Assembly: GCA_965116735.1 (NCBI GenBank)
Contig: OZ220712.1
Coordinates: forward strand, 3,265,680-3,329,679
Direction of reading: 5' to 3'
Source: Thermodesulfobacteriota bacterium
GTDB taxonomy: Bacteria > Desulfobacterota > Binatia > UBA9968 > JAJDTQ01
Length of the DNA: 64,000 bases
The stretch's first letter is position 1. Each line of letters begins with the position of its first letter. The translations under genes were made by a program, and so were the position numbers. The notes under the pieces are model-generated. The model did no database searches, was not told the origin of the DNA, and saw only the letters and a list, made by a program, of their open reading frames with translations. This document shows positions 7,746 through 51,718 of the stretch, in pieces.

Positions 7746-8252
7746 CTAGCGCATGTTCTCCGGGACCAGCGGCTCGCGCTCGGTGCTGATGCCGTCGTAC
7801 TCTTCCTGCTCCACGAAGTCCTTGCGCAGGGGATAGCCCACCCAGTCCTCGGGCAGCAGGATGCGCCGCAGGTCCGAATGCCCTTCGAAGACGACCCCGA
7901 AGAGATCGAACACTTCGCGCTCGAACCAGTTGGCCACCTTCCAGACGTCCTCGACCGTGGCGATCCGCGAAGCGTCCCGGTCCACGTCGGCCTTGAACAC
8001 GATCTGTTGCGGGGGCTCGTAGGAGTACAGATGGTAGACCACCTGGATGACGTTCTCGACGGGAAGATCCACCGCGGTCAGGTCGGAAAGCACGCTGAAC
8101 TTGAGCGCTCCGTCGTCCCGCAACGCCAGGCACACTTCCTTGAGGTTGGCCGCGTTGACCTTGAAGAACGGGTCCAGACACTCTTCATCGAGGTCGGTGG
8201 CGGCGCCGGGGCAAAGCTCGTTCACGCGCTCGAATATCTCTTTTGCCGTCAT
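7746..8252 (-). CDS. nuoC: NADH-quinone oxidoreductase subunit C (30 kDa)
   Basis: 168 aa, NuoC-like (…FDLFGVVFEGHSDLRRILLPEDWVGYPLRKD); directly follows nuoA with only 44 bp between them, so no nuoB. Confidence 0.85.
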   Translation of the reverse strand: MTAKEIFERVNELCPGAATDLDEECLDPFFKVNAANLKEVCLALRDDGALKFSVLSDLTAVDLPVENVIQVVYHLYSYEPPQQIVFKADVDRDASRIATVEDVWKVANWFEREVFDLFGVVFEGHSDLRRILLPEDWVGYPLRKDFVEQEEYDGISTEREPLVPENMR

Positions 8253-8295
8253 GTCGTCGTTACCTGCCTGGTGGCCCGACCGTCGCAGCCGTCGC

Positions 8296-8673
8296 CTAGC
8301 TCTTCACCCACTCCAGGTCGCCCTTGCACCAGTCGTAGATGAGGCCAAGGAACACGATGAGGGTGAAGACGGCGATGGCGCCGAACGCGAACAGTCCGGC
8401 GTCGTTCTGAAGCCAGTCGCGGAACACCACCGCCACCGGGAAGATGAAGGCGATCTCCACCTCGAAGATGATGAAGATCAGGGCGATGAAGTAGAACCGG
8501 ACGTTGAAGTTGACCCACGCGCTCCCGGAGGCCGGCTCGCCGCACTCGTAGGTGGAGAGCTTGCGGAGCTGGGGGTTGGAAGGCCGCAGCAGGCGGCCGA
8601 TCAACAGGTTCACCCAGACGAAGGCCGCACCCAACAACGTGAATACCAGCACGCTGGCGAAGTCAAAAAGCAT
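8296..8673 (-). CDS. nuoA: NADH-quinone oxidoreductase subunit A
   Basis: 125-aa three-TM protein with the conserved YECGE motif; AT-rich promoter region upstream (8680-8810). Confidence 0.85.
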   Translation of the reverse strand: MLFDFASVLVFTLLGAAFVWVNLLIGRLLRPSNPQLRKLSTYECGEPASGSAWVNFNVRFYFIALIFIIFEVEIAFIFPVAVVFRDWLQNDAGLFAFGAIAVFTLIVFLGLIYDWCKGDLEWVKS

Positions 8674-8875
8674 GGTTCCTCGGGTAAGATAAAGAAATCA
8701 ATAACCTTTTGCAGTCGGTCCCTATATACACACAAAAGCCGTTGCCGGTCAACAAACCGGCCCGCGCTGCCCGCCCCGGCATCCTTACACTGCCCAACCA
8801 TTCCTGTTACCTTATCCCGTGCTTGGCGTCGACCGGCACGACACGGGAAAGATCAAACCGGGAGAGATCAAACGC

Positions 8876-9868
8876 ATGGCAAGAGTGAGCATCACCGTCG
8901 CCTGTTGGGACTATGACCGGACGCGCCCCTTGCAGGAGGGCCGCGTGCCGGTGGAGGGGGTCGACCTGACCTACCTGCCGTTCCGCGTGGAGGAAACCTT
9001 CTGGCGCATGCTGCGCTACCAGGACTTCGACGCCGCCGAGATGTCCATGGGCTCCTACATGATGTCGCGGGACAAGGGCACGCCGCGGTTCGTGGCGATC
9101 CCGGTATTTCCCTCCCGCGCGTTCCGGCACTCCGGCATCTACATCCATACCGGCTCGGGCATCAAGGAAGCCGCCGACCTCACCGGCAAGCGGGTGGGCG
9201 TCCCCGAGTACCAGATGACGGCGGCCATCTGGCAACGCGGCATCCTGCAGCACGAGTACGGCGTCGATCTCGAGAAGGTGAACTGGTTCACCGGCGGCGA
9301 AGAGACGCCCGGACGGGAGGAAAAGCTCCGTCCCGACCTGCCCGAGACCCTCTCCATCACTCCCATCGGCCCGGGCCAGACCCTCTCCTCCATGCTGGAG
9401 AACGGCGACATCGACGCCCTGATCTCGGCCCACATGCCGTCGCCGTTCGTGCGCCGCTCGCCCAAGGTTGGGCGGCTGTTCCCGGACTTCCGCTCGGTGG
9501 AGGAAGACTACTTCCGCAAGACGGGCATCTTCCCGATCATGCACACCGTCGTCTTCCGGGAAGACGTGTACGAGCGCCACCCATGGGTGGCACAGAACCT
9601 CTACAAGGCCTTCTGCGAGTCCAAGCGCCTCTGCGCCGAGGCCATGTACGAATATTCGGCGCTCAAGTACATGCTGGCCTGGTCCATCGAGCAGATGGAG
9701 AAGGAGAAAGAGGTCCTGGGACCCGATGCCTGGGCCTACGGACTGGAGCCCAACCGCCATGTCCTGGAGACGCTGGTGGGCTACGCCCACGAGCAGGGCC
9801 TCACCAAGCAGCGGCTCGAGGTGGATAGCCTGTTCGCGCCGAGCACGCTGAACGAGTTCAAGGTGTAG
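8876..9868 (+). CDS. NMT1/THI5-like protein (4,5-dihydroxyphthalate decarboxylase-like family)
   Basis: MARVSITVACWDYDRTRPLQEGRVPVEGVDL...GIFPIMHTVVFRE pattern typical of this family; start moved to internal ATG at 8876. Confidence 0.55.
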   Translation: MARVSITVACWDYDRTRPLQEGRVPVEGVDLTYLPFRVEETFWRMLRYQDFDAAEMSMGSYMMSRDKGTPRFVAIPVFPSRAFRHSGIYIHTGSGIKEAADLTGKRVGVPEYQMTAAIWQRGILQHEYGVDLEKVNWFTGGEETPGREEKLRPDLPETLSITPIGPGQTLSSMLENGDIDALISAHMPSPFVRRSPKVGRLFPDFRSVEEDYFRKTGIFPIMHTVVFREDVYERHPWVAQNLYKAFCESKRLCAEAMYEYSALKYMLAWSIEQMEKEKEVLGPDAWAYGLEPNRHVLETLVGYAHEQGLTKQRLEVDSLFAPSTLNEFKV

Positions 9869-9908
9869 GGGACCCCGGCTCCAAGGTTGTAGGGGCGGGA
9901 GGCAACGC

Positions 9909-10256
9909 TCACCTTTCGGTATGGAGGGCTACGCTAGATTTGTTGCCGCGCGTCTCTCTCTCGAATGGTGCAACCTCGATCTCGCCCGCCCGCCCGCGGG
10001 TCTTGGCGATGTCGTAACTGTTCTGCATACGCATGAGGGTGTCCATCGACACGCCGAATGCCTTCTCAATTCGCAACGCCATCTCCGGCGACAAGCGCGC
10101 TCGCTCGTTCAGGACGGCCGACAGCGCCGCCCGCGTGACGCCCAGCGCCTTCGCCGCCCGAGTCACCGTCAGATCAAGAGCCTCGATGATCTCGTGTTTC
10201 ACGAACTCGCCAGGATGGACGGGGCTCTTCATTCGGAAGCCGTGTACCGGTTTCAT
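9909..10256 (-). CDS. higA: HigA-family antitoxin (XRE-type HTH)
   Basis: HTH core LTVTRAAKALGVTRAALSAVLNERARLSPEMALRIEKAF; 10 bp downstream of higB with GAGAGG RBS. Confidence 0.7.
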   Translation of the reverse strand: MKPVHGFRMKSPVHPGEFVKHEIIEALDLTVTRAAKALGVTRAALSAVLNERARLSPEMALRIEKAFGVSMDTLMRMQNSYDIAKTRGRAGEIEVAPFERETRGNKSSVALHTER

Positions 10257-10265
10257 GTCTACCTC

Positions 10266-10556
10266 TCAGTGATAATCCTCGTAGTTGAGGTCGACGATCT
10301 CCATCCCGTCCCGATCGATCCAGAACGCGAGCCGCCAGTTCGCGGTAACGGCCAGACTCCAGATGCCCCTGCGATCCCCGCTCAGCCTGTGTGCCCTCCA
10401 ACCCGGCACGGTCCGCAACTCTTCCTCCCGTTCCATGTCCTGGAGGAAAGAAACGATGCGCCGGAGCTTCGGAGCAAATGCGGGCTGTACTCCGGCGGCA
10501 TCATCTTCCTCAATGAGCCGACGCAGCCCCCTGTGGACCACGTTCCTGATTTTCAT
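10266..10556 (-). CDS. higB: HigB-family toxin (RelE/ParE superfamily)
   Basis: C-terminus ...WSLAVTANWRLAFWIDRDGMEIVDLNYEDYH matches the HigB signature ending LNYEDYH; start set at internal Met (MKIRNVVHRGL). Confidence 0.7.
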   Translation of the reverse strand: MKIRNVVHRGLRRLIEEDDAAGVQPAFAPKLRRIVSFLQDMEREEELRTVPGWRAHRLSGDRRGIWSLAVTANWRLAFWIDRDGMEIVDLNYEDYH

Positions 10557-10840
10557 CCCCCATGTTAGCTGGTACGGCCGTATAGTGTCAAGATACACTT
10601 TCCATCACGCTCGTTACGCGACTACCCTGCCGTGGCTGAGGTGGTCCTGGTTTGTCGGACAGGAAGGCGGCAGAAATAAGGTTTATTCTAAAGTTATCGA
10701 GCATGCCGCGAAGGTCCTGTTTAACCGGCACCCGCCGCATGTGTTATATTCTATTGGATTGGGCACCGTGGGTGCCGGATGGTGCTGGGGTATTGAAGCT
10801 GAACGATGCCCGGGGCGCCGAAAACTGTTCCAAGGACGCC

Positions 10841-11431
10841 ATGTCCGACCCCGAGAAACCCGACGTCGAAGCCCCCGCCACGGAAACAAGGGATTCCGTC
10901 GGCGAGCCGGACGCCTCCGTCCAGGAGGTGAAGTGGTGGATCGACACCGGAACCAAGCGCCAGCCGGAATCCGGTGAACGGGCCCCCATCGGCGTGATCG
11001 AGCGCTGGGCCTTCGAGCTGCTGAAGGACTACCGGCAGGAGCGGGCGCTCCAGAACATCGTCGACATCAACGGCCAAGTCCTGCGGCAGCTCTCCGACAA
11101 CGAGGACCGCTGGGTGTACGTCTCCCTGGGCGTCGGCGAGTTCCCCCAGAAACGCCTCAACTACATCAAGGATGCGCTGAGGATACCGCGCTACGCCCGC
11201 GCCCTGGCCATCGACGCCGGCTACTCCGTCCGCATCCTCATCACCGGCAACCCCCCGGGCGAGAAGGTCCTGGACATCAACTTCACCGAGGCGCCGTCCC
11301 TGGACTACTGGACCAACGGCGAGCTCATCGAGGAGCAGATGTTCCGCTCCATCGACGACGCCCTCAAGCGCCTGCGGAACTCGGTTCACCGGTACCTGCG
11401 CAAGAGCGCGCCCGAGGAGACGCCCGCGTAA
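10841..11431 (+). CDS. hypothetical protein (upstream partner of tandem AAA ATPase)
   Basis: 196 aa from ATG at 10841 (MSDPEKPDVEAPAT...); no motif recognised; AT-rich upstream region with inverted repeat ggcaccgtgggtgcc. Confidence 0.5.
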   Translation: MSDPEKPDVEAPATETRDSVGEPDASVQEVKWWIDTGTKRQPESGERAPIGVIERWAFELLKDYRQERALQNIVDINGQVLRQLSDNEDRWVYVSLGVGEFPQKRLNYIKDALRIPRYARALAIDAGYSVRILITGNPPGEKVLDINFTEAPSLDYWTNGELIEEQMFRSIDDALKRLRNSVHRYLRKSAPEETPA

Positions 11432-11649
11432 CGGCCGCCCGTAACGCGCGCCGGTGTTCGCGCAGCCGTCCTCCAGAACCGCCATACTCCGAGCCGCTAA
11501 CCCCGCCGCGGTGTCGACACCACCTACGGGCGAGGACACCTGAAGACGCGTCAACACGAAAAGTCTGCATCCGGACAGCCACGTACGTCCGAATCTGACG
11601 CATGACATTATTAGAGTTCTCCCACGAGAGTCTCGAACAAGGGGATGTC

Positions 11650-13737
11650 ATGCCGTCCGCCTATGAACGCCGTCTCGTCCTTTTCTATCTGTCGAACGCT
11701 GTCTCGCGGCTCCGTGGCCGCGACGAGGAGGCGTCGCACTTGGTGCAGTGGCTCCGGCAACATGAGGAGGAGCTGCGGTTTCGCTACCCGACAAGGCCGG
11801 ACGACATCGCCGAAGGAGCGATACAACACGGTTTGCGAGACCGGGAAGTATCCACGCCGGAGTGGCAACGTTTAGGAGAGGTCCTGAGAAACGCCTGGGC
11901 GGCGGCAAGGCCCGCGCACCCTGACAGGACGGCGCGGCGCATTCGGCGCCTGGCAAAGCTCACGTGTCTTTCCCGGACCGACGCAGTAATCCTGGAACTG
12001 GCGCTGCGCCATCAAACGGGCTCCCTGGTCGGTTCGTTGATCGACGACATTGGCGAACGCACCCAATGGAATAGAAGAGGCTTCAGGCTGGGGAACCCCG
12101 TGCTCCCAAGCTTGCTTGGCCTTTCTGCCGGCACGGTCCACGGCCGGTTTGCGCCCGACGCCCCTCTCGTGAGTTCGGGACTATTGTCCATCGACGACGA
12201 CGGCGATGTGACGCTCCTCGACCGTTTGACCCGGCTGCACTGGCTTCCGAAGGAGGCCGGTTCCGACGTGCCGCGCCTGCTGCTGGACGAGGCCGGCCCC
12301 GGCGAGCTTTGCTGGACCGATTTCGACCACGTTGCCGGCGATCGCGATCATCTCGAACGGATTCTGAGCGGGGCGTTTCGATGCAACCAAAAAGGCGTCA
12401 ACGTCCTCGTCTACGGGCCGCCGGGGACCGGCAAGACCGAGTTCTGCAAGACCCTTGCCGCCCGCCTCGAAGCGCCGCTCTACGTGGTCGGCGAAACGGA
12501 TGCCAACGGTGGCGAGCCTACCCGAAGCGAGAGGATGCAGGAGTTGCGGCTCGCGCAACGCCTGCTAGCCGGAAACTGTCGATCCATCCTGCTCTTCGAT
12601 GAGATGGAGGACCTGCTCTCCTTGCAGGGAGGGTTGCTGGCGGGACTGTTCGGCTCGCGCCGTGTCCCCGCGCGTTCGGCCGAGGGCTCGAAGGTGTTCA
12701 TGAACCGCCTTCTGGAGCAGACTCCGGTACCGATCCTGTGGACGTCGAACGCTGCCCGGTGGACCAGTCCCGTTCTCTTGCGCCGAATGATGTTCGCCCT
12801 GGAACTGCGCCAACCCCCGCCCAAGGTCCGGGCGCGGATCTGGGCGCGGCACCTCGCCCACCATGGGATCGAGTCGACCGAGGAAGATGTCCATGCCCTG
12901 TCACGGGAGTTCGACGTAACGCCGGGCGTGGCCGCCGGGGTCACCGCCGCGGCCCGGCTCGGCAGCGGGACCCTGGCGGACGTGCGCCGCGGCGTGCGCG
13001 GACTGGCGCGGGTGCTGTCCGGCGACACGCCGCCAACTCAACGGACGCCGGGCAGGTACGATCCCGAGTTGATCCGCGCCGACGTGGACCTGATTCAACT
13101 CGCGGACTGCCTCGTCGAAAGCGGCGCGCGCCACTTCTCGCTATGCCTGCAAGGACCACCGGGAACCGGCAAGAGCGCATTCGCCCGGCACCTCGCCGAC
13201 CGGCTCGGGCTCGAAGTCATCCAGAAACGTGCCTCCGATCTCATGTCGATGTGGGTCGGGAGCACCGAAAGAAACATCGCCGAAGCCTTTGCCGAGGCCC
13301 GCGACGCCGAGGCATTCCTGGTCTTCGACGAAGCCGATTCACTGCTCGCCGACCGCCGCCTCGCCCACGGAAACTGGGAGGTGAGTCAAGTGAACGAGAT
13401 ACTGACCTGGATGGAAGGCCACCCGTTTCCCTTCGCCTGCACGACGAATTTCGGCGAACGCCTAGACCCGGCCACCCTGCGGCGGTTCACGTTCAAGGTC
13501 GCGCTCGACTATCTGTCGCCGGAGCAGGCAAGGGTAGCGTTCCGTGTCTACTTTGGGATCGAACCCCCAGCCGAGGCCGCTGGCCTAACCGCGCTGACTC
13601 CGGCCGACTACGCCGTCGTGCGCCGGAAGGCAGAGATCCTCCGTTGCCTGAGCGACACAGGAGCGCTCGCAGCAATGCTGCGGGCGGAAGGCCAGGCGAA
13701 GCCGGGGCGGCTGCAGGTGGTCGGATTTCGGACGTGA
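11650..13737 (+). CDS. tandem AAA+ ATPase (two classical-clade AAA modules after an unknown ~270-aa N-domain)
   Basis: Walker A VLVYGPPGTGKTEF and CLQGPPGTGKSAF; Walker B ILLFDEMED and FLVFDEADSL; AAA signature SDLMSMWVGSTERNIAEAFAEAR; arginine-finger-like LLRRM / ATLRRF; AGGGGA RBS before the ATG at 11650. Confidence 0.75.
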   Translation: MPSAYERRLVLFYLSNAVSRLRGRDEEASHLVQWLRQHEEELRFRYPTRPDDIAEGAIQHGLRDREVSTPEWQRLGEVLRNAWAAARPAHPDRTARRIRRLAKLTCLSRTDAVILELALRHQTGSLVGSLIDDIGERTQWNRRGFRLGNPVLPSLLGLSAGTVHGRFAPDAPLVSSGLLSIDDDGDVTLLDRLTRLHWLPKEAGSDVPRLLLDEAGPGELCWTDFDHVAGDRDHLERILSGAFRCNQKGVNVLVYGPPGTGKTEFCKTLAARLEAPLYVVGETDANGGEPTRSERMQELRLAQRLLAGNCRSILLFDEMEDLLSLQGGLLAGLFGSRRVPARSAEGSKVFMNRLLEQTPVPILWTSNAARWTSPVLLRRMMFALELRQPPPKVRARIWARHLAHHGIESTEEDVHALSREFDVTPGVAAGVTAAARLGSGTLADVRRGVRGLARVLSGDTPPTQRTPGRYDPELIRADVDLIQLADCLVESGARHFSLCLQGPPGTGKSAFARHLADRLGLEVIQKRASDLMSMWVGSTERNIAEAFAEARDAEAFLVFDEADSLLADRRLAHGNWEVSQVNEILTWMEGHPFPFACTTNFGERLDPATLRRFTFKVALDYLSPEQARVAFRVYFGIEPPAEAAGLTALTPADYAVVRRKAEILRCLSDTGALAAMLRAEGQAKPGRLQVVGFRT

Positions 13738-13949
13738 ACAACGAAACAATAAGGGAGATATGGGTTGTAAAGGAAAAAGTTTTCTTTTGTGCCAAAGATA
13801 ATAGATTGTGGTGACATCCGTGCTGTCACCTGGATCCCAGGCCGTAGGGCAGCATGGGGGAACAGGCCGGGCCACATCGCGTTGGGACTTGGCGAGGCCA
13901 GTGACGTTGCTTCAGAGCGCCTATCGAACCCACGAAGGAGGTGCAGGAC

Positions 13950-14537
13950 GTGTCCACCGCTTACGATCTACATTGGAAGTCGATCCCCATGCGACCAGTA
14001 CCGCGTGATTATTGGAATAACTGGTACCGGACCTACCTCGGCCGGGGCGTCTACCTCTGGGTGCTGGCTACCACCGATGGCAACTACGTGGGTTATTACG
14101 TTGGCAAGTCGGACGACATCGGTAGTCGTTGGTGGAAACATTTACATGATTTCCCGGGGTACTACCTACCTACAAACGTAAGGGCGTTCCTTGAGAATCC
14201 GGTAGCGGAGTTCAACAACAACGCCGTCGAGAGGGGTCTTCCTCAAAGGCGAAAAACCGTACAGACCATGTTGAACGACACTTGGTTCTGCTGGGCCGAA
14301 GTGACCTGTCGGCCATGGCACCGGACCGAGAACGTGGAGTACGTGTTGCAGGAAGGGCTCAAGATACACGCGGGGATCACAGTAGACGGGTATATCGGCG
14401 ATGCGGGCGCCCGTTATCCTCCGACTTCTGCACTCGCGATCCACAACCGCTTCGGACGGGACTTCCTGGTTCCTGTGCTTCCTGCGACGATCATCTTCAC
14501 GGTCGATGGCGGGGTACAACATATTGAGGTTGCGTAG
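13950..14537 (+). CDS. GIY-YIG nuclease-like domain protein
   Basis: GVYLWVLATTDGNYVGYYVGKSDDIGSRWWKHL fits the GIY..YIG..R..H pattern; AGGAGG RBS 9 nt before a GTG at 13950. Confidence 0.55.
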   Translation: MSTAYDLHWKSIPMRPVPRDYWNNWYRTYLGRGVYLWVLATTDGNYVGYYVGKSDDIGSRWWKHLHDFPGYYLPTNVRAFLENPVAEFNNNAVERGLPQRRKTVQTMLNDTWFCWAEVTCRPWHRTENVEYVLQEGLKIHAGITVDGYIGDAGARYPPTSALAIHNRFGRDFLVPVLPATIIFTVDGGVQHIEVA

Positions 14538-14671
14538 AAGGCACGCTGCTGCTGCAATGGCAAGGTAGAGACGTCGGGCCTACCGCCGCCGACGCGAAAT
14601 CCCTCGCCGGTGCAAATACTCGTACAAACGATCGGGAGCACCCGCAACAACGCGGCAAGCGGAGACATCCA

Positions 14672-14881
14672 GTGCGTCACGAACGCCTCATAGAACTCCT
14701 CCGCCTAGCCATCCGACTTCAAGGAAGCTCCGATGGCGTAACCCTCGTTGACATACAGGAAGAGTTCTCCGTTAGCCGACGTACTGCCGAGCGGATGCGG
14801 GATGCCGTCGAGGCCGCCTTCGGGCCATTGGAGACGGTTGAGACGGACACTGGCGACCGCCATATACATTGGCGGCTTTAG
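14672..14881 (+). pseudogene. truncated N-terminal wHTH of a WYL-type (BrxR/CapW/PafBC-like) regulator
   Basis: MRHERLIELLRLA...VSRRTAERMRDAVEAAFGP resembles HTH_11 of WYL regulators but ends after 69 aa with no WYL domain downstream. Confidence 0.45.
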
Positions 14882-15051
14882 CCGAACGTCCTCGCACAGC
14901 CGTTCGCACAACAACTGCTGCAGCGCACTTGCGTTGATAGGCATCACAGTAACCTCGGCTGATCTTCCGCAGCCGGTCATGCTGCGCGACTCAAACCTGA
15001 TCTAGAATCGACACTGGCTGGGACTAATATGGGCCTGTCCAGGCCACCGCC

Positions 15052-16161
15052 TCACCCCCCGGCGGCACCCCGCCGGATGGTGCCGGGGCGCATGGGGAAG
15101 GGGACGGAGCTGGTGATCTCCAGGCCGTAGCCGGACAGGCCGACGAGGTTTCTGGGGTTGTTGGTGACGAGCTTGAGCTTGCGGATGCCCAGGTCTCTGA
15201 GGATCTGGGCGCCGATGCCGAAGTCGCGGAAGCTCCTTTCCTCTCTGGCTTCCGCGGTGCGCAGGCCCTTGCCTTCGGGCTGGAGGTAGAGCAGCACGCC
15301 GGCGCCTTCCCGGGCGATGAGCTCCAGGGACTGCTTGATGACCGACCCGGTGTCGAAGAACTCGAAGCCGAAAACGTCGCCGGGAAGGAACTTGGTGCAC
15401 ACCCGCACCAAGGTCTCGCGGTCCTCGGAGATCTCTCCCTTGATGAGCGCCAGGTGCTCGCTGGAGTCCACGTGGGTGTTGTAGACCACGGCCTCGAACT
15501 CGCCGCCGTAGCGGGTGGGCAGCCGGGTGGTGGCGACCCGGTGGATCAGCGAGTCGTGCTTGAGGCGGTACTGGATCAGGTCCGCGATGGTGCAGATCTT
15601 GAGGTCGTACTTTTCACCGAACTCCTCCAGGTCCGGCAGCCGCGCCATGGTGCCGTCGTCCTTCATGATCTCGCAGATCACGCCGGCGGGCTTGAGCCCC
15701 GCGAGCCGGCACAGGTCCACGGAGCCCTCGGTCTGGCCCGTGCGCACCAGCACGCCGCCGTTGCGGGCGCGCAGCGGAAAGATGTGCCCGGGCGTACACA
15801 GATCGCCGGGGCCGGCGTCGTCGGCGATGGCGGCGAGGATGGTCTCGGCGCGGTCGGACGCCGAGATGCCGGTGGTGACGTTCTTGACGCCGTCGATGGA
15901 AACGGTGAACGCGGTGCCGAAGGGCGCGGTGTTGTCCCGCACCATCATGGTGAGGCCGAGCTCGGCGACCTTCTCCTCGGTGAGGGGCAGGCAGATCAGA
16001 CCCCTTCCCCAGGTGGCCATGAAATTGATGGCCTCCGGCGTGACCAGTTCCGCCGCCATGGTGAGGTCGCCCTCGTTCTCGCGGTTCTGGTCATCCATCA
16101 GGATGACCATCCTGCCTTGGCGGATGTCTTCGAGGGCTTCTTCGATGGTGGCTACGGGCAT
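15052..16161 (-). CDS. ribBA: bifunctional DHBP synthase / GTP cyclohydrolase II-like protein (C-terminal domain apparently degenerate)
   Basis: N-terminal RibB domain well conserved (ENEGDL, ATWGRGLICLP); C-terminal RibA-like domain lacks the zinc-ligand cysteines (VRVCTKFLPGDVFGFEFFDTG instead of HSECLTGD...RCDCG). Confidence 0.75.
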   Translation of the reverse strand: MPVATIEEALEDIRQGRMVILMDDQNRENEGDLTMAAELVTPEAINFMATWGRGLICLPLTEEKVAELGLTMMVRDNTAPFGTAFTVSIDGVKNVTTGISASDRAETILAAIADDAGPGDLCTPGHIFPLRARNGGVLVRTGQTEGSVDLCRLAGLKPAGVICEIMKDDGTMARLPDLEEFGEKYDLKICTIADLIQYRLKHDSLIHRVATTRLPTRYGGEFEAVVYNTHVDSSEHLALIKGEISEDRETLVRVCTKFLPGDVFGFEFFDTGSVIKQSLELIAREGAGVLLYLQPEGKGLRTAEAREERSFRDFGIGAQILRDLGIRKLKLVTNNPRNLVGLSGYGLEITSSVPFPMRPGTIRRGAAGG

Positions 16162-42563: not shown

Positions 42564-44072
42564 TTACGCTTCAAATCGCTGGTTGAATTCCTGCAGCGCC
42601 TTCTCCGCCGCCGCCTTGTTGTCGTCGTCGATCTGGCCCTTCTCGACGATGGCCGGCAGCAGATCCGGGTGCTGCGACTCCACGAACTCGAACAGCTCGT
42701 TCTGGTACCGTTGCAGGTTCTCGGGCTCGATCTGGTCGACGAAGCCGTTGGTGCCGGCGTAGATGACGAGCACCTGCTTCTCCACGGGCATGGGCTGGTA
42801 CTGCCCCTGCTTGAGGATCTCCACTAGCCGGCTGCCGCGGGCGATCTGCCGCTGGGTGGCCGCGTCCAGGTCCGATCCGAACTGGGCGAAGGCCGCCATC
42901 TCGCGGTACTGCGCAAGGTCCAGCCGGAGCCCGCCGGCCACCTGCTTCATGGCGCGGATCTGCGCGTTGCCGCCGACACGGGAGACCGACAGGCCCACGT
43001 TGATGGCGGGACGGACGCCCGAGTAGAAGAGGTCGGACTCGAGATAGATCTGGCCGTCGGTGATGGAGATGACGTTGGTCGGGATGTAGGCGGAGACGTC
43101 GCCCGCCTGGGTCTCGATGATCGGCAAGGCCGTCAGCGAGCCGCCGCCCTGCTCGTCGCTCATCTTGGCCGCGCGCTCCAGCAACCGGGAATGAAGGTAG
43201 AAGACGTCGCCCGGAAAGGCCTCGCGGCCCGGCGGGCGGCGCAGCAGCAGGGAGAGCTGGCGGTAGGCCACCGCGTGCTTGGAGAGGTCGTCGTAGATGG
43301 CCAGCGCGTGGCCGCCGTTGTCGCGGATGTGCTCGCCCATCGTGCAGCCGCTGTAGGGCGCGATGTACTGGAGCGGCGCCGACTCCGAGGCGGTGGCGGC
43401 CACGACGATGGTGTAGTCCATGGCGCCGTACTGCCGGAGCTGGTCGACGACCTGGGCAACCGTGGAACGCTTCTGACCCACGGCGACATAAATACAGGTG
43501 ACGTCGCCGCCCTTCTGGTTGATGATGGTATCGATGCAGACCGCGGTCTTGCCGGTCTGGCGGTCGCCGATGATCAGCTCCCGCTGGCCGCGGCCGATGG
43601 GGATCATGGAGTCGATGGCCTTGAGCCCGGTCTGGAGCGGCTGCATCACCGGTTGGCGCTGGACGATGCCCGGGGCCTTGAGCTCGATGCGGCGGCGTTC
43701 GGTGGTCTCGATGGGGCCTCGGCCGTCGATGGGCTCGCCGAGCGGGTTCACGACCCGGCCTCTCAGCGCGTCGCCTACCGGGACTTCGACGATGCGGCCG
43801 GTGCGGTTGACGCGGTCGCCTTCCTTGATGAGGTGCGACTCGCCGAACAGCGCCGCGCCGACGTTGTCCTCCTCGAGGTTCAGCGCCATGCCGAACACGT
43901 CGTTGGGAAACTCCAGGAGCTCTCCGGCGGCGGCGTTGTCGAGGCCGTAGATCCGGGCGATACCGTCGCCCGTGGACAGAACGGTGCCGATCTCCTCGAC
44001 GGTTACGCCCTTGTCGTAGTCCTCGATCTGTTTCTTGATGATGCTGGTTATTTCGGCGGTGCCGATCTCCAT
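42564..44072 (-). CDS. atpA: F1Fo ATP synthase alpha subunit
   Basis: 502 aa; P-loop GDRQTGKTA. Confidence 0.95.
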
Positions 44073-44108
44073 GGCTCGCTCCCTTGGATGTGTGCTGCTT
44101 CACACAAG

Positions 44109-44131
44109 AGCGGGTTTGAAACCCGCCCTAC
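44109..44131. repeat. REP-like palindrome (variant, one c missing)
   Basis: agcgggtttgaaacccgccctac upstream of atpA. Confidence 0.7.
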
Positions 44132-44171
44132 ACGTACCGTCTTGGCGCCTGCTCGCGGCGCTCTTCCGCTA

Positions 44172-44330
44172 GTGTCGTGTCCCGTAGTTTCCTGGCATAA
44201 GTTGCGCAGGATTTTTTGTCGTCGGCAAGGCGCGATGACGAGCAGTGGCGGGCACCACGCGAGGAAGAGCAACGCAGCCGACGGCGAAAAAGACAAGCAA
44301 ATTATGCCAGGAAATTACGGGACACGACAC
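44172..44330. mobile_element. MITE (non-autonomous IS630-family derivative)
   Basis: 159 bp with perfect ~29-bp TIRs gtgtcgtgtcccgtagtttcctggcataa; TA duplication on both sides; the first 13 nt of the TIR are identical to the right end of the IS630 copy at 49.99 kb; carries the conserved 70-nt core. Confidence 0.65.
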
Positions 44331-44866
44331 TAGTATGTCCGCTCGAAGCTCTTCCTGAGAGTCTGAAGCTGCGTGCGCACGCTGCCGTCGTAGACCTTGC
44401 CGCCGACCTCGACGATGATGCCGCCGACGATACCGGGGTCCACCTCCTCGGTGAGCATCGCGGTCTTGCCGGTCATTTCACCCACCACCGCAACAAGGCT
44501 GTTCCTCTGATCCTCCTCCAGGGCCTGTGACACCGTGACCTTGGCGTTCACCCGCCCCGCCGCGTCGTCCAGCAGCCGGTGGTAGTGATTCACGATGGAG
44601 GACAACCCGTCCATGCGGTCCCGAGCGACCAGCAGCGAGAGGAAGTTGGTGGTCAGGTCCGACAATCCCAGGTGGCCCGCCACCTCCACGACGATATCCT
44701 TGCGGCGGTCCTGGTCGAAGGCGGGGTTTCCCAGCACCTTCTTCAGGTCGGGATCCTCGTACGCCTCGAGGAAGGCGTCCACCTCGGCGCCGATGGCCTC
44801 CTCACGGCTGGCGGCGAGCTCGAACACGGCTCTTGCGTAACGGCGGCTCAGTTTTCCTTCGATCAT
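44330..44866 (-). CDS. atpH: F1Fo ATP synthase delta subunit
   Basis: 178 aa, OSCP/delta-like. Confidence 0.85.
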   Translation of the reverse strand: MIEGKLSRRYARAVFELAASREEAIGAEVDAFLEAYEDPDLKKVLGNPAFDQDRRKDIVVEVAGHLGLSDLTTNFLSLLVARDRMDGLSSIVNHYHRLLDDAAGRVNAKVTVSQALEEDQRNSLVAVVGEMTGKTAMLTEEVDPGIVGGIIVEVGGKVYDGSVRTQLQTLRKSFERTY

Positions 44867-44870
44867 CGGT

Positions 44871-44909
44871 TACAAACCCGGAAACGGGCGGTTTGTAACC
44901 CGCCCCTAC
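44871..44909. repeat. REP-like palindrome (gtaa variant, extended hairpin)
   Basis: cggttacaaacccggaaacgggcggtttgtaacccgcccctac in the atpH-atpF gap. Confidence 0.7.
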
Positions 44910-44972
44910 GCCTATTGCCGCGAACCCCGCGCACCATGTCAACCATCGTTGCGTTCCCGTCGACGCGAAGCG

Positions 44973-45515
44973 TCACAACTCTTGAATCTGCCGCGAGAAG
45001 TTCTCGACCATGCGGTCCTGGTCGGCGGCGGCCATGTGCTGCTGGATCACCCGCTCGGCGGCGGCCTCGGCCAGAAGCGCCATCTCTCCGCGGATCTGCT
45101 GCCGCGCCATCTTGATTTCCTGCTCGGCCAGGAAGTCCGCGTCGGCCTTCAGCTTGGCTGCCGACTCCTCCGCCTCGGCCACGATCCGGGTGCGCTCACG
45201 CTCGCCGTCGGCCCTCAGCCCTTCCCGGATTCGCTCGCACTCATCGTCGAGAACCCCCAGCAATTCTCGATACTTGCGTACATACCCCTCGGCTTCCCCC
45301 TTGGCCTCCTGGGCGGTGGTCACGGCTTCAATGAATCCCTCCCGGCGCTGCTCGAGGTGCTTCTTGATCAGCGGAAGGCCGAAGCGTTTGACCAGGTAGG
45401 CGAAGATTGTGAAGTTGATAAGCGGAAACAGCAGTTCCGTAATGGAGGGAGTGTGAGTCCCGCCCGCGGTCGCGGCCCAGGCCGTGGACACGAAAATGTC
45501 GGTCAAGAGGGTCAT
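44973..45515 (-). CDS. atpF: F1Fo ATP synthase subunit b
   Basis: 180 aa, N-terminal TM followed by a long charged coiled coil. Confidence 0.8.
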   Translation of the reverse strand: MTLLTDIFVSTAWAATAGGTHTPSITELLFPLINFTIFAYLVKRFGLPLIKKHLEQRREGFIEAVTTAQEAKGEAEGYVRKYRELLGVLDDECERIREGLRADGERERTRIVAEAEESAAKLKADADFLAEQEIKMARQQIRGEMALLAEAAAERVIQQHMAAADQDRMVENFSRQIQEL

Positions 45516-45940
45516 GTCAGCTTCCGGCCCAAAACCTTCTCCGCCATCTGCTGCGCAAGCGCCTCGGCATTGGTCGAGGCCACTTGGCGCGCCGCCTCCA
45601 TCTCCTTCTGGACCTCTTCCCGGATCTCCTGGATCTTTTGGGTGGCGGCGTCACGCCCCTGGGAGAGGATCACGTTGCGGGCCTTGAGGGCCTCTTCCCG
45701 GATCTCGCTCTTGATGGCTTCCCCTTCGGCGCGCGCCTTGGCGATGGCGGCGTCGTACTGCTCCTGCAACTCTTTTCCTTCCTCGGTCATCGAGCGTGCT
45801 TCCGCGTGGGCGCCCTCGGTGCGGCGCTCCCGTTCCGCCATCAAACGCCCGACCGGCCCGAACAGCACCCGGCGCAGGATGCTGAAAAGGATCAGGAACA
45901 GGACGATTTGGACGACCAGAGAAAAGTCTATGCTGATCAT
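45512..45940 (-). CDS. F1Fo ATP synthase subunit b'
   Basis: 142 aa second b-type subunit with the same architecture; 4-bp overlap with atpF. Confidence 0.75.
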   Translation of the reverse strand: MISIDFSLVVQIVLFLILFSILRRVLFGPVGRLMAERERRTEGAHAEARSMTEEGKELQEQYDAAIAKARAEGEAIKSEIREEALKARNVILSQGRDAATQKIQEIREEVQKEMEAARQVASTNAEALAQQMAEKVLGRKLT

Positions 45941-46291
45941 GCTTCGCGTTCGTTGCTGAAGACACCGGACTCGGACGGCGAGCCCCGGTCAAGGAAGATA
46001 CGGAGTGGCGTGAACCTAGATGTCGTCAGTAGCCTCTATAAACCTCGTTTCCTTCCCCGCGCTTGCTCGGTGACGCCCGCCGTGTAGACGGAACGACGCT
46101 CCCGGAAAGGGAAAACCTCGATAGTCTGCCCGGTTGTTCCACGAAAACGCGGACTTATCGCACCGCACCGGATGAGTCTGCTTGCAGTCTGAGGAAAGGC
46201 AAACCTCTTTCAACTGCCGACCACGGACGGTCTATAGCACTCGCACCTTTACTTGTCAAAGAGAGCCAGTGTAAACCAGCGGTCTGCGTCG

Positions 46292-47383
46292 TTACGCAGC
46301 GAAATCGCGTAAATGACAAGCGGGACCAAACCTCTCGACGTTCCATCCTGAATCCGAATCAATCCGGCGTCGCAGCCGGACCGAACCAGTCAATATCGGT
46401 TGCTGTCGAAGTCGGACCTTGGATTCGCGTATTGTCCGATCGACCGTCCGATCTCTACGCTTCCCAGACTGCTTGGCAAGCCCGGCCTTTGATGTGGCGA
46501 AGGCATTTGGCGTTTGATTGAGAATACGGTCCACATCTCTCTTGGTCGGCAGGACCCTACCTCCTTTGCACCAAGGCGTCAGCACCGCGTACGGGTTAGG
46601 TTCCAACATAGTTCTCCAAACGCCAGCTTCATCGGCATTCTCTGACCCGTGGTGCGGCACCTTAAATACGGATGCTCTACCACTCGGTCGCTCGCGACTC
46701 TGCAGAATCTCGACCCAAGCACCCTTCTCCGAGTCTGAACCAAGAAGCAACTCCGTACCACCTACACTTATCCACAGCACGACAGCAACATCATTGGGGG
46801 ACACACTCGGAACCCGTGTCTTCGTGCTACCTGCGTTGGGGAACAAGGCACCAATTGATCTAAGAGAGTTACTGAATTCCGCGCTTCCAGGAGACAAGGA
46901 CCAAACCCGGCACCTTCCGCGGGAATAAATGCGCATGTTGGCCAGAGCGAACGTTGGTTGAGCGGCCCTGGATTGGAGTTGGGTGAGCACGGCATGAATC
47001 TCTCGAACACCGGAGCCGTCTATCGCGACGTCACGTCGCCCCCAGGCACCAACGGCGGTGAGAAATTCCTTGTCGCGTAATGCGGCAGCGCAACAGAAAA
47101 CGGCCTCTTTGCAAACCTCAACCACCCTTGACATCCCGCGTATGTGATCATCGTGCCAATGGGTAGCGACTACTAGGCCGACGGCCTGCGAGGGGTCTAC
47201 ACCGAGACTCCGCAAGTAACCTAACGCTCGTGGGTAGCCATCGCGGTCGATACAGGAGTCAACAATGACCCAGTTGCCATCGCCGATATGAAGAACCACG
47301 CTCTCCCCATACCCGGGGCCAACGAGTGTAACCTCTAGCTCGTCTCGGTCCGGCTGCGTACCGACGCTTGCAGACTCTGTCAC
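46292..47383 (-). CDS. metallo-beta-lactamase-fold protein (ComEC-like MBL: HxHxDH and PHHGS motifs)
   Basis: ATHWHDDHIRG and KVPHHGSENAD motifs; proposed GTG start forms a GTGA overlap with the upstream gene's stop. Confidence 0.65.
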   Translation of the reverse strand: MTESASVGTQPDRDELEVTLVGPGYGESVVLHIGDGNWVIVDSCIDRDGYPRALGYLRSLGVDPSQAVGLVVATHWHDDHIRGMSRVVEVCKEAVFCCAAALRDKEFLTAVGAWGRRDVAIDGSGVREIHAVLTQLQSRAAQPTFALANMRIYSRGRCRVWSLSPGSAEFSNSLRSIGALFPNAGSTKTRVPSVSPNDVAVVLWISVGGTELLLGSDSEKGAWVEILQSRERPSGRASVFKVPHHGSENADEAGVWRTMLEPNPYAVLTPWCKGGRVLPTKRDVDRILNQTPNAFATSKAGLAKQSGKRRDRTVDRTIRESKVRLRQQPILTGSVRLRRRIDSDSGWNVERFGPACHLRDFAA

Positions 47384-47979
47384 TCGTCGAAGACCGCCCT
47401 GGTCTTCCGCGCCCACTCCTCGGCCTCCTGAACGTCTTTCTTTGTGAAAGCGGGAAGGTCGCGGAATACGATACGAGAAACCCGTTCCTTCGTGCCCACA
47501 ACCGAACGGCTGTATCCGATGACCCAACGAAAGACGCTTCCAAGTTGCAACTTGGCCACATCGGTCTCCGATAGCTCTTCCAAGGGTATTACTGCTTCTT
47601 CCCCTGCATAGGCCGCCCCTGCCGTCACGTCTAGGAGATTAGCGGTGATGTCCTCGTCTCTAATCTCAGTGACATAGCCTTCCCACTCCTGGATCGCGTA
47701 GAGGGTCGGAGAAGGGTTCTGGGGTGGTCGTGGAGGTAAGAGTTCGACGACCTTGGCAAGTTGTGGGTCGCTCTGTTCACTACCGGTTAACGGAGACAAA
47801 TCTGCCGCTTCCATCTGGGGGTAGCGGGCCCTCGTTGTCGCAACGTCCCTCCCCTGGGCCAATACTGCGCCAACAGTCTCGTCCATGTTCTTGACGAGGT
47901 CTTCGATTGTCGCGTCGCGATCAAGACTACCGACATCGTCGACCGCCCTCGCCGTAGTCAGTTGAGCCGTCTGTGGCAC
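47380..47979 (-). CDS. hypothetical protein (acidic, 199 aa)
   Basis: Middle gene of a three-gene minus-strand cassette; no recognisable motif. Confidence 0.5.
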   Translation of the reverse strand: MPQTAQLTTARAVDDVGSLDRDATIEDLVKNMDETVGAVLAQGRDVATTRARYPQMEAADLSPLTGSEQSDPQLAKVVELLPPRPPQNPSPTLYAIQEWEGYVTEIRDEDITANLLDVTAGAAYAGEEAVIPLEELSETDVAKLQLGSVFRWVIGYSRSVVGTKERVSRIVFRDLPAFTKKDVQEAEEWARKTRAVFDE

Positions 47980-47995
47980 CTATCTATACCTCCCT

Positions 47996-48685
47996 CTAAT
48001 CTGCCAAAGCCATGACGTGATCAATCAGATCCTCACTTCGCTTCAACGAAGCTTCGAAGTTGTCCTCTAGTAAACCAATCAAATGCGCCGCAGAGTTCGG
48101 GCTGTCGTTGTCGCTGGCATAGTGATCATTGACAGCCACATAGACCCCTGTGCGCCCCTCGCCAATCCGCGTGGACGGCTCCACCTTGACATTAATGCTA
48201 CCACCCTTTGGCCTTCCTTGGGGATCGATTTGCGACATCGTGAGTGACGTCATGCCTCCTTGCATTCCGTCCAAGCCGAGAGCTTCCCTCCAATCACCCC
48301 AAGGTTCCACGGGAGCTAAGGTCCTACCTATCTTATCTCTAACGCTTAAACCCTGTACTTGGAAATGAACCTCTCGGTTGATCCCGAACCCCGTAAGGGG
48401 CGTGTTAGGTAGAATTTCGTTGAACACGCGCGAGCTTAGATCTCGCAGCCGAATGTAGGGTGCCTGTAAAGTCTCGCACTTGAACCGTTCTGTCGTCACG
48501 TCGACACGGAGCCAATCAACGGAGAATACGGTGAGCCCTTGGTGGGCTACCTGCAACTGTGCAACCACTTCCGCACCCTTCGGCAAGAGGTCGTGCAACG
48601 TAAACCAAGCCGGGGTGAATATCGCTGGGTTAAACTTACCCACCAGGATGATGTTCACACCGCTTATCTCTGGCGTTATGCGCAT
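47996..48685 (-). CDS. hypothetical protein (~229 aa)
   Basis: First gene of the cassette (MRITPEISGVNIILVGKFNPAIF...); no recognisable motif; lower GC than the core genes. Confidence 0.5.
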   Translation of the reverse strand: MRITPEISGVNIILVGKFNPAIFTPAWFTLHDLLPKGAEVVAQLQVAHQGLTVFSVDWLRVDVTTERFKCETLQAPYIRLRDLSSRVFNEILPNTPLTGFGINREVHFQVQGLSVRDKIGRTLAPVEPWGDWREALGLDGMQGGMTSLTMSQIDPQGRPKGGSINVKVEPSTRIGEGRTGVYVAVNDHYASDNDSPNSAAHLIGLLEDNFEASLKRSEDLIDHVMALAD

Positions 48686-48841
48686 ATGGCCCATCCAACT
48701 TGGTCGCAACCGCAGCTAACCAATCGTAACCGTTATCTGTGACTTCGCGAAACTGGTTCCATATCACACCCGTTACCGCAGCGTCGAGAACGCGCAAACA
48801 ACTTTTAAAAAGAAATCGATGGGCAAGGAGAGAACACCCTA

Positions 48842-49990
48842 GTGTACTGTCCCACAAATAACTAGTATAATAATGGGCAACCCCCCAAAAGGAGGATGCC
48901 CATGCCGCGTGGTCGCCCGGTTAAGCCTGTGGTTCTGGCGGAGGAAGAGAAAGCCCAACTTGTCAGTCTTGCCAACTCTCGCTCCCTGCCGCACGGGTTG
49001 GTGCGGCGGGCGCAAATCGTTCTTGCCTGTGCAGAAGGAGAGTCCAACAGCTCTATTGCCGGGCGCATGCGCGTGAACAAGGCAACGGTCGCCAACTGGC
49101 GCAAGCGCTATCTCATGGGCGGCATCGAGGGCCTGCACGATGAACTGGGTCGGGGGCGCCACAGGACCTATGAAGATGAACGGGTGGCCACAACCCTCAA
49201 CGCCGCACTGCAAAGCAAACCACGCGACGGTTCCAGCCATTGGAGCGTGCGTGCGCTGGGCGAGGAAACCGGCATTTCCAAGAGTACCGTGCAACGGTGG
49301 TTCAACCTGTTCAGCATCCAACCCCACCGCCAGCGTCACTTCAAACTCTCCAACGATCCCTTCTTCGTCGAGAAAGTGCGCGATATCGTGGGACTTTATC
49401 TCAACCCGCCCGACCATGCCGTGGTCCTGTGCGTCGATGAAAAAACCCAGGTCCAAGCCCTCAACCGCACTCAACCCATGCTGCCCATGGGATTGGGGTA
49501 CGTCGAAGGGGTCACCCATGATTACGTCCGCCACGGCACCACCACCCTGTTCGCCGCCCTTGACATTGCTACCGGCCGAGTCATCGCCCAGTGCAAAAAA
49601 CGCCATCGTCACCAGGAGTTCCTTACCTTCCTCAACCACATCGATGCCAACGTCCCCGAACCTTTCGACGTCCATCTCATCGCTGACAACTATGCTACCC
49701 ACAGACATCCAAAGGTCAGAGCCTGGCTCGCTAAACGCCCCCGCTACCACATCCACTTTACACCCACCTATGCCTCATGGCTCAATCAAGTCGAACGCTG
49801 GTTCGGCCTCATCACCCAGATGGCCATCCGCCGCGGCTCCTTCTCCAGCGTCTCCCAACTCGTCCAGAAAATCCGACTCTTCGTCCAAAACTACAACCGC
49901 AATGCCGCTCCCTTCATGTGGACCGCCACCGCTGACTCCATCCTTGCCAAGGTCCAACGTCTTTGCTCATATATTTGCGGGACACGACAC
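48842..49990 (+). mobile_element. IS630-family insertion sequence (intact, TA target-site duplication)
   Basis: Imperfect TIRs gtgtactgtcccacaaat / atttgcgggacacgacac; flanked by TA at 48840-41 and 49991-92; single DDE transposase ORF. Confidence 0.8.
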
Positions 49991-51622: not shown

Positions 51623-51702
51623 AAGTCTTTTATTTTCAATAAGTTATAGAACGGGCGCCGTTACTGTTTCTTAGCATTTCCGAACACGGAAAGGAAGGCC
51701 AA

Positions 51703-51718
51703 TGTTTCACGTGAAACA
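51703..51718. promoter_or_regulatory. parS centromere-like site (perfect tgtttcacgtgaaaca)
   Basis: Exact match to the 16-bp palindromic parS consensus, ~80 bp upstream of parA. Confidence 0.7.

Follow-up and report, generated by a model that had tools for sequence, protein, structure and literature searches.

The 64,000-nucleotide (nt) window of contig OZ220712.1 analysed here encodes, at 10841-13737, a 196-residue protein and a 695-residue ATPase with two classical AAA modules, a pair that an earlier note on this DNA had proposed as an undescribed two-gene system in a defence-island setting. In our analysis the proposed pair dissolves into a gene which, judged from its synteny, belongs to the Binatia core, and a decaying copy of an acquired cassette that contains the ATPase. 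By comparison across loci, the conserved partner of the ATPase is a WYL regulator and not the 196-residue protein. The cassette, which matches no named defence system, has the appearance of a DriD-type regulon with an uncharacterised, putative unfoldase as its effector, and the ATPase-WYL module is widespread across phyla, with optional GIY-YIG, PD-(D/E)XK or ADP-ribose-hydrolase genes.

Limits of the cassette

Open reading frames (ORFs) in the region 10841-13737 and its flanks were taken from a mechanical ORF list, the comparison loci are labelled L001, L002 and so on, and boundaries at the DNA level were drawn by blastn. Both ORFs are present as first described: the 196-residue ORF occupies 10841-11431 (the mechanical ORF extends from a TTG at 10652), the ATPase ORF ends at 13737, and the two co-oriented genes are separated by 218 nt. 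Core homology to two related Binatia loci (L084 and L085) covers the window at 8000-9871, at 10833-11415 (the 196-residue region, with 84-89% DNA identity) and from 15046 onward, and in both loci the gene order is nuoA (minus strand), a binding-protein gene (plus), the 196-residue gene (plus), the cargo, and then ribBA, pyrF, proS and an RND pump (all minus). Homology to the cassette loci L002, L004 and L009 begins at 11558-11576, past the end of the 196-residue gene. From its synteny in L084 and L085 and these homology boundaries we take the 196-residue gene to be a core Binatia gene that borders a variable slot and lies outside the ATPase cassette. The slot between this gene and ribBA (11432-15051 in the window, 8589-12262 in L084 and 8589-12014 in L085) holds different cargo in each genome: the ATPase cassette in the window, genes for proteins of 305 and 255 residues plus a DUF1828 gene in L084, and a gene for a 1035-residue LamininG/PPC protein in L085. 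Conserved synteny in related genomes, which the earlier note had named as evidence against its own proposal, is thus what the 196-residue gene displays, with unrelated cargo behind it.

At least one of the two related Binatia genomes with the syntenic 196-residue gene has the ATPase elsewhere, L002 (ATPase) and L084 (196-residue gene) lying ~950 kb apart on one 4.66-Mb contig. By tblastn a homologue of the 196-residue protein adjoins the ATPase in 1 of 83 ATPase loci, L001, which is a contig of the same strain. The protein has 409 homologues, none of them named, and those whose source is named come from Binatia or "Deltaproteobacteria" metagenome-assembled genomes (MAGs); it was rightly said to carry no recognisable motif, with no match in Pfam, NCBIfam, PADLOC or PHROG and none in a profile search of PDB sequences. 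A partnership in which it serves as adaptor of the ATPase, the two forming a novel two-gene defence system, has in its favour the shared orientation and close spacing of the genes and the lack of a match to any known family beyond the AAA core, and is very improbable given that the pair is confined to this strain, that the 196-residue gene keeps its place in L084 and L085 without the ATPase, that cassette homology starts at 11574, downstream of the 196-residue gene, and that the intergenic gap holds what reads as an activator-type promoter of the ATPase's own. The two genes are chance neighbours, not a unit. The slot and its borders comprise:

10841-11431, plus strand: conserved hypothetical 196-residue protein of Binatia, core syntenic gene
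11574-14878, plus strand: acquired cassette of DriD-type promoter, ATPase gene, GIY-YIG-like gene and WYL 5' stub (blastn boundaries)
11584-11617, plus strand: DriD-type operator (11584-11602) and -10 element (11612-11617) (pattern match and position weight matrix, PWM)
11650-12384, plus strand: ATPase N-domain, residues 1-245, helical region and winged helix, family-specific
12385-13059, plus strand: ATPase AAA module D1 (Pfam, alignment, model)
13060-13737, plus strand: ATPase linker, AAA module D2 and lid (Pfam, alignment, model, fold search)
13941-14537, plus strand: GIY-YIG-like 198-residue protein, optional accessory gene
14672-14881, plus strand: WYL activator stub, 69 residues, winged helix-turn-helix (wHTH) only (PADLOC WYL, E 1e-7; 70% identity to the L002 regulator)
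14878-14964, minus strand: remnant of the 5' end of a DUF1828 gene (96.6% identity to L084 11710-11796)
15052-16161, minus strand: ribBA, core gene closing the variable slot (Pfam of the genes called in L001 and L084-L086; 91% DNA identity to L084 and L085)

The WYL regulator and the DriD-type promoter

Placement of the regulator was counted over 81 non-redundant ATPase loci, and tblastn neighbours over 83. A WYL gene lies co-oriented and less than 400 nt downstream of the ATPase gene in 47 of the 81 loci, downstream with an insert of 0.4-3.5 kb in 7, divergent and upstream in 1 and in another arrangement in 1; in 6 loci with too little downstream sequence no copy was found, and the 19 others are weighed below. 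Unbiased clustering of the flanking ORFs returned the WYL gene as the sole widely shared neighbour, and for a third conserved gene the same clustering gave the WYL gene and its out-of-frame shadows alone, the downstream neighbours being heterogeneous. A MORN protein of L003 was considered as a general partner and set aside, being present in just 4 loci. In L002 the order is ATPase, a homologue of the 198-residue protein, and a full-length 334-residue WYL/WCX regulator. The linkage is retained where the ATPases are 33-44% identical, largely on plasmids: Leisingera and Fuscovulum plasmids carry ATPase, WYL, ADP-ribosylglycohydrolase, (HEPN) and PD-(D/E)XK genes in this order, Pantoea has ATPase and WYL, Rhodoferax has ATPase, DUF2779 and WYL, and in Azospirillum, Novosphingobium and Sphingobium the WYL gene is divergent to the ATPase gene. 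MT835507, deposited as "Bacteriophage sp.", encodes ATPase, WYL and a Pfam GIY-YIG protein, with SIR2 and PLD genes adjoining.

DriD of Caulobacter crescentus is a wHTH-WYL-WCX activator that senses single-stranded DNA (ssDNA) (PMC9186387, PMC13004042), and DdaA of Acinetobacter is related to it (PMC13010146). The L002 regulator matches the DriD chains 9pfq/8tp8 over its full length (phmmer, E 4e-52), and 48 regulators from ATPase loci are 35-42% identical to Caulobacter DriD and share most of its ssDNA-contact residues (Y168 in 48 of 48, R204 in 44 and W206 in 47).

Upstream of the ATPase genes lies a conserved palindrome, T[A/G]CG[A/T]C-N7-G[A]CG[C/T]A, followed in 48 compiled promoters by a constant 9-nt spacer and then TA-N3-T; a G usually stands two positions upstream of this TA. 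The palindrome occurs at -140 to -40, mostly at -60 to -72, in 59 of 76 ATPase loci, with 77 other matches in 1.24 Mb, and a 37-nt PWM finds 63 matches at ATPase promoters and 0 in 621 kb of shuffled sequence. The window box, TACGTCCGAATCTGACGCA at 11584-11602, matches the pattern exactly, scores 32.9 bits as the sole plus-strand PWM match in the window, and is followed after the 9-nt spacer by TAGAGT at 11612-11617, with an A at the usual position of the upstream G. In published work the site for DriD upstream of didA reads ATACGTCCGTTTCTGGCGCA (PMC9186387), the consensus core of the class is CGAC-N7-GTCG (PMC13010146), and in promoters that depend on DriD the box takes over the position of the -35 element, with a set spacing to the -10 element (PMC13004042). 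The cassette operator is nearly the didA box, and the window promoter combines a palindromic box (core CGNC-N7-GNCG) with placement of that box in lieu of the -35 element and fixed spacing. Because this layout is the same as that of the published DriD-dependent promoters, we assign to the ATPase gene a predicted activator-type promoter of the DriD class. Of the two possible ATPase starts (ORF 11602/11650-13737, plus strand) the one at 11650, giving 695 residues, is taken as correct since the ATG at 11602 falls inside the promoter/operator.

Elsewhere in the loci 38 further PWM matches were found, and the genes after them encode extra ATPase copies or fragments, a DUF2779 nuclease, NADAR, ADP-ribosylglycohydrolase/DSP-phosphatase, RtcB, Nmad2, EF-Tu domain 2-3 fragments, DUF1643 and small envelope proteins. 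The ATPase islands would on this pattern behave as small DriD-type regulons, in which the genes of RtcB, NADAR, ADP-ribosylglycohydrolase and Nmad2 type appear to form a repair or counter-attack set under the same switch.

Individual loci illustrate the range of these promoters. DriD-type promoters stand before genes for RtcB, Nmad2, NADAR, an EF-Tu 2-3 fragment, ADP-ribosylglycohydrolase/DSP-phosphatase fusions and a DUF2779 nuclease in L079 (1044-2255 and 6879-7562), L017 (7304-7846), L071 (15099-15677), L088 (7567-9135), L091 (6565-8127) and L016 (15171-16655). A second ATPase copy or a 99-residue N-terminal fragment has its own DriD-type promoter in L010 (5415-5785), L068 (11386-13156) and L079 (3268-5522). 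In L012, L027, L030, L033 and L067, which are of Latescibacterota type (L027 is labelled Gemmatimonadetes), the box has the variant form CTGCGAC-N7-GTCGCAC and lies ~550-600 nt upstream of the ATPase gene; in L027 and L030 it precedes a small gene for a collagen-repeat, lipoprotein-like product that ends 27-28 nt before the ATPase gene. A distant WYL gene (25-29% identity) lies 1-3 kb upstream in some of these five loci, not in L027 or L030, and also in L037 and L062.

The known WYL systems resemble the cassette to differing degrees. The DriD regulon is closest, with a regulator homologous over its full length, most ssDNA contacts shared and a box that replaces the -35 element in both. However, its reported targets (didA, recA, recJ, dnaG, bapE and CCNA_03891/01149) include no AAA ATPase, and driD of Caulobacter has a fixed place in the chromosome and is not activated by its own product, whereas the cassette regulator is mobile and co-encoded downstream of its presumed target; the window regulator is, in addition, truncated. 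BrxR and CapW systems likewise place a wHTH-WYL-WCX regulator beside a mobile gene set, and CapW senses ssDNA, but BrxR and CapW are repressors upstream of their systems, whereas the cassette regulator has an activator-type architecture and usually lies downstream of its target. The actinobacterial locus of PafBC and the Pup-proteasome/Mpa machinery is a parallel in logic only, a WYL regulator being genetically linked there as well. Mpa, an AAA unfoldase, belongs to the Pup-proteasome machinery; it has a single AAA module with OB domains, and the cassette ATPase is of a different family. No Pup, ligase or proteasome genes lie near the cassette ATPase, and PafBC is a heterodimer that uses a different promoter motif.

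In the window the regulator has been lost. The 69-residue ORF matches the first 69 of the ~330 residues of the WYL regulators alone (70% identity to residues 1-69 of the 334-residue L002 regulator), and nothing beyond them is present in the window. The cassette remains homologous to L002, L005 and L009 as far as 14878/14879, which is codon 69 of the regulator, and 14878-14964 matches the start of the DUF1828 gene of L084 (L084 10991-11776, minus strand). Since cassette homology ends exactly where the DUF1828 5' remnant begins, one deletion took the 3' parts of the WYL regulator and DUF1828 genes plus anything between them. The stub is all that the window holds of a cognate wHTH-WYL-WCX regulator, and no other WYL gene or DriD-type promoter was found in its 64 kb. 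The same truncated arrangement recurs in two other samples (L001 and L086), and so appears established in the population. The window copy is a degraded member of the cassette family. Its ATPase and GIY-YIG-like ORFs are intact and have probably lost their induction, unless they respond to a paralogue of DriD encoded at another place in the genome.

The 198-residue protein encoded between ATPase and stub has a GIY...YIG...R...H...E...N pattern (G36-Y38, Y49-G51, R63, H67, E120/E133 and N169) that is conserved in 25 homologues, one of which NCBI names a GIY-YIG nuclease. It has no match in Pfam, NCBIfam, PADLOC or PHROG, and its family profile gives a marginal match to I-TevI (E 0.09) among PDB sequences. 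Its gene is found in 5 of 83 ATPase loci, and, because a Pfam GIY-YIG protein also follows the distant ATPase-WYL pair in MT835507, the comparison suggests a genuine, optional accessory of the cassette.

The ATPase, its carriers and its surroundings

The ATPase contains, as the earlier note described, two complete classical AAA modules (two PF00004 stretches, Pfam E 3e-32). Across 87 homologues its Walker A (GPPGTGKT and GPPGTGKS), Walker B (DEMED and DEADS), sensor-1 Asn and RR pairs either do not vary or are conserved to more than 90%. These correspond to K262, D317/E318, N367 and R378/R379 in D1 and to K508, D560/E561, N600 and R611/R612 in D2, where an aromatic pore loop (MWVG, M-W535-V-G537) is also kept in the homologues. 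The N-terminal region, which had been described as some 270 unrecognisable residues, indeed has no match in Pfam, NCBIfam or PADLOC; it is ~245 residues long and includes a winged helix. An AlphaFold (AF2) model built from the 87 sequences has a mean predicted local distance difference test score (pLDDT) of 80 and resolves the N-domain (1-245), D1 and D2.

In Foldseek searches the best PDB matches are p97, Cdc48, NVL and Rix7, which align over both modules (E ~1e-18, 19-21% identity, alignments to p97/Cdc48 spanning 510-580 columns); the viral library returned generic AAA proteins alone. The likeness to Cdc48/p97/VAT, NVL and Rix7 consists of a stack of two classical AAA modules, each with a full set of Walker A/B, sensor-1 and arginine motifs, and the D2 MWVG loop is comparable to the MWFG pore loop of p97. 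In place of the double-psi barrel N-domain of Cdc48/p97/VAT, however, the ATPase has a helical/winged-helix domain; identity to Cdc48/p97 is only 19-21%, and no known adaptor, proteasome or ubiquitin-like system lies alongside. The ATPase is thus a Cdc48-like machine by fold, yet stands outside that family on score and N-domain. Of the suggested Cdc48/VAT-like machine with an adaptor, the tandem-AAA fold nearest p97/Cdc48 stands and the 196-residue protein as partner does not.

The profile scores do not bear out kinship with a housekeeping family, which the earlier note had allowed would undo its proposal: CDC48 (TIGR01243) scores 69.6 bits against a cut-off of 802.65 and EccA (TIGR03922) 46 bits against a cut-off of 467, and the 25 best of 57 NCBIfam matches include neither a CbbX nor a SpoVK model. 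Nor did its claim that no named defence ATPase matches meet a counterexample. No PADLOC model covers the ATPase, and the top match in both PADLOC and NCBIfam, IteA/IetA (NF042959, E 1e-27), covers the D2 core only at 96.9 bits against a cut-off of 510. An IetA-like identity was dropped on this score, on the tandem architecture (695 residues, against one AAA module and ~370 residues in IetA/IteA) and on the missing protease partner, Ietas including the subtilisin-like protease IetS while no protease gene lies near the ATPase here. The ATPase matches phrog_10401.

With a threshold of E <= 1e-5 the ATPase has at least 2,800 protein matches, a count from 8,000 scored candidates that will include AAA-core-only matches; those listed are named merely "AAA family ATPase", and the best 120 are full-length relatives of 57-100% identity. 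Homologues come from at least seven phyla, with plasmids among their carriers, ATPases of 52-78% identity being spread across Binatia, Thermodesulfobacteriota, Acidobacteriota, Latescibacterota, Gemmatimonadota, Nitrospirales and Alpha- and Gammaproteobacteria. Three genomes carry two ATPase-WYL modules each (L015/L053 in OY282433.1, L040/L070 in CBDBIS010000005.1 and L072/L077 in RHO1_bin_48). The closest ATPase loci, L004-L083, are almost all from MAGs, and several have isolate names which we take to be like those of marine-sponge microbiome bins. The spread points to habitat-bound horizontal transfer. In L088 (4494-6497, Leisingera thetidis pBMJM1_5) the ATPase is annotated as a 210-residue hypothetical protein plus a 452-residue AAA ATPase, which is either an N-domain encoded as a separate gene or a frameshift, and IS66 and IS3 insertion sequence (IS) elements lie just upstream.

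Beside the slot, the region is preceded by nuo genes and a gene for a periplasmic binding protein, and ribBA is followed by pyrF, proS and the RND pump on the minus strand. Of the neighbours first described, HigBA is confirmed by Pfam and the truncated WYL HTH by PADLOC, the GIY-YIG-like gene is recognised by its residue pattern, and by synteny the stretch is variable and acquired. Four further features belong to this neighbourhood:

9909-10256, minus strand: HigA antitoxin (Pfam HTH_3, E 4e-11, 43.1 bits against a cut-off of 23)
10266-10598, minus strand: HigB toxin (PF05015, 47.7 bits against a cut-off of 27)
10721-10750 and 10762-10776, plus strand: sigma70-like site and inverted repeat GGCACC-GTG-GGTGCC (ggcaccgtgggtgcc), upstream of the 196-residue gene
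13810-13830, no strand assigned: inverted repeat GGTGACA-TCCGTGC-TGTCACC (read from the sequence)

The HigBA pair, a RelE-fold HigB-like toxin followed by an HTH antitoxin, is an insertion at ~9872-10832: blastn synteny with L084 and L085 is interrupted between 9871 and 10833, and in these two genomes the binding-protein gene directly precedes the 196-residue gene. The start of HigB probably lies further inside its ORF (the L086 gene call is 96 residues), and a sigma70-like site on the minus strand stands at 10591-10562. A flank resembling 10637-10723 of the window sits near a HigBA-like pair in L004. The AT-rich, promoter-like stretch with an inverted repeat that had been noticed upstream of the proposed pair is present at 10721-10776, where L084 and L085 show no conservation (homology there begins at 10833); it serves the 196-residue gene or the HigBA flank and is not the promoter of the ATPase, which has its own at 11584-11617.

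No tRNA gene was found in the window, and no integrase or transposase among its called genes or scanned proteins, no search having been aimed at the latter two. The cassette ends show no intrinsic terminator, and a terminal-repeat search gave only short two-copy repeats that are likely due to chance. A 17-nt direct repeat, GCCGGATGGTGCTGGGG (10774-10790) and GCCGGATGGTGCCGGGG (15072-15088), 94% identical, brackets the 196-residue gene and the island; its second copy lies inside ribBA, and the repeat may be chance. After the ATPase stop codon an AT-rich spacer (13738-13830) ends in the inverted repeat GGTGACA-N7-TGTCACC without a T-run. An operator for a different regulator, or a scar of GIY-YIG gene insertion, could account for this repeat, which by the PWM does not belong with the DriD-type boxes. 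Further along the window, 44000-52000 and 55000-64000 have a GC content of 0.50-0.59 compared with 0.64-0.69 elsewhere, with a shift in GC skew, and may be further acquired regions.

Predicted role of the cassette

The family is in our view probably a mobile stress cassette that is induced by ssDNA and has an unfoldase as its effector. The variable slot of the window acquired a mobile cassette of ~3.3 kb, made up of a DriD-type promoter, the gene of the winged-helix/tandem-AAA ATPase, a gene for a GIY-YIG-like nuclease and a gene for a DriD-like wHTH-WYL-WCX activator. By analogy with DriD, DdaA, PafBC and SiwR, the activator would bind the palindromic box at the -35 position and, upon sensing ssDNA from DNA damage or replicating foreign DNA, recruit RNA polymerase to the ATPase promoter. 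With the regulator gene usually 20-250 nt behind that of the ATPase, induction would feed itself, co-transcription switching on the ATPase and the activator's own gene in a positive feedback loop, while accessory genes of the same islands (nucleases, ADP-ribose hydrolases, RtcB) would often respond through their own DriD-type promoters. The ATPase is predicted to act as a hexameric, Cdc48/p97-like unfoldase or segregase that threads its substrate via the aromatic pore loop of D2. Its winged-helix N-domain may direct it towards DNA or a protein on DNA, so that stripping or unfolding of a DNA-bound target would give access to nucleases or repair enzymes. In the window, the later deletion removed the activator beyond 69 codons.

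Several observations weigh against this reading. No close WYL copy is found in 19 of the 81 loci although at least 1.2 kb of downstream sequence is available (6 of the 19, five from Latescibacterota and one from Gemmatimonadaceae, have a distant WYL gene 0.1-3 kb upstream). Of the DriD contact residues, Y192 is mostly F and K202 is not kept in the 48 regulators, so the ligand of the regulator may differ from that of DriD. D1 is without an aromatic pore loop, and the hexamer and unfolding activity are predicted from family resemblance alone. The feedback loop is a mere reading of the gene order, since Caulobacter DriD does not activate its own gene. The neighbourhoods mix repair-type genes (DNA polymerase II, SbcCD, UDG, WGR, RtcB) with conflict-type genes (toxin-antitoxin pairs, HEPN, SIR2, PLD, macro/NADAR, IS elements and PADLOC candidate systems), so they do not settle the biological role predicted for the family.

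The main rival, which we hold possible though clearly less likely than the stress cassette, is that the ATPase-WYL cassette is dedicated to defence against phages or plasmids, with its expression triggered by invader ssDNA, and that the unfoldase and a variable nuclease then destroy a component of the invader or kill the cell. The patchy, multi-phylum distribution at 52-78% identity with two copies in three genomes, the location in a variable slot and the presence on plasmids (one of them conjugative with IS elements nearby) fit such a function, as do the copy on a phage-labelled scaffold beside SIR2 and PLD genes with the phrog_10401 match, the varied accessories (GIY-YIG, PD-(D/E)XK/DUF2779, HEPN, macro, NADAR and ADP-ribosylglycohydrolase) and the toxin-antitoxin pairs and some PADLOC candidate systems nearby. 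Described WYL regulators of defence systems, however, are repressors, whereas this one has the layout of the DriD activator class; in addition no PADLOC model covers the ATPase, and the neighbours are mostly ordinary metabolic genes in neighbourhood counts that have no control set. Somewhat less likely still is an undescribed mobile module, immune or abortive in function and built around the winged-helix/tandem-AAA ATPase and the DriD-like activator, in which invader ssDNA would lead the Cdc48-like unfoldase, with interchangeable nucleases and ADP-ribose-processing enzymes, to dismantle nucleoprotein complexes of the invader or the host.

It is improbable that the cassette benefits its mobile carrier element rather than the host cell, for example by counter-defence, nucleic-acid repair after attack or replication control. 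Its presence on plasmids and on the phage-labelled scaffold would agree with this, as would the DriD-type promoters before RtcB, NADAR, ADP-ribosylglycohydrolase, Nmad2 and the EF-Tu domain 2-3 fragment, whose functions are typical of repair or counter-attack. Most copies, however, are chromosomal with no recognisable element genes within 8 kb, and in the window itself tRNA, integrase and transposase genes did not come to light within the scope given above.

Returning to the ssDNA-induced stress cassette, a description of an ATPase-WYL (DriD-like) module was not found in the searchable full-text literature; an earlier in-silico mention elsewhere is possible. The pair connects activators of the ssDNA-sensing DriD class to a Cdc48-like ATPase, in a module that is apparently undescribed and tractable: it offers a defined operator and a clear induction hypothesis that can be tested, and culturable carriers exist in Pantoea sp. 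At-9b (pPAT9B03), Fuscovulum blasticum (pRsa), Leisingera thetidis (plasmid) and Azospirillum brasilense. Should the immune or abortive version hold, the module would represent the first case of a WYL switch of activator type that controls an effector of protein unfolding. Removal of proteins from foreign or damaged DNA, if this is what the ATPase does, would parallel in bacteria the part that p97 plays in chromatin extraction, and the cassette would, if the reading is true, add to PafBC and the proteasome a second, independent link between a WYL sensor of damage and an unfoldase.

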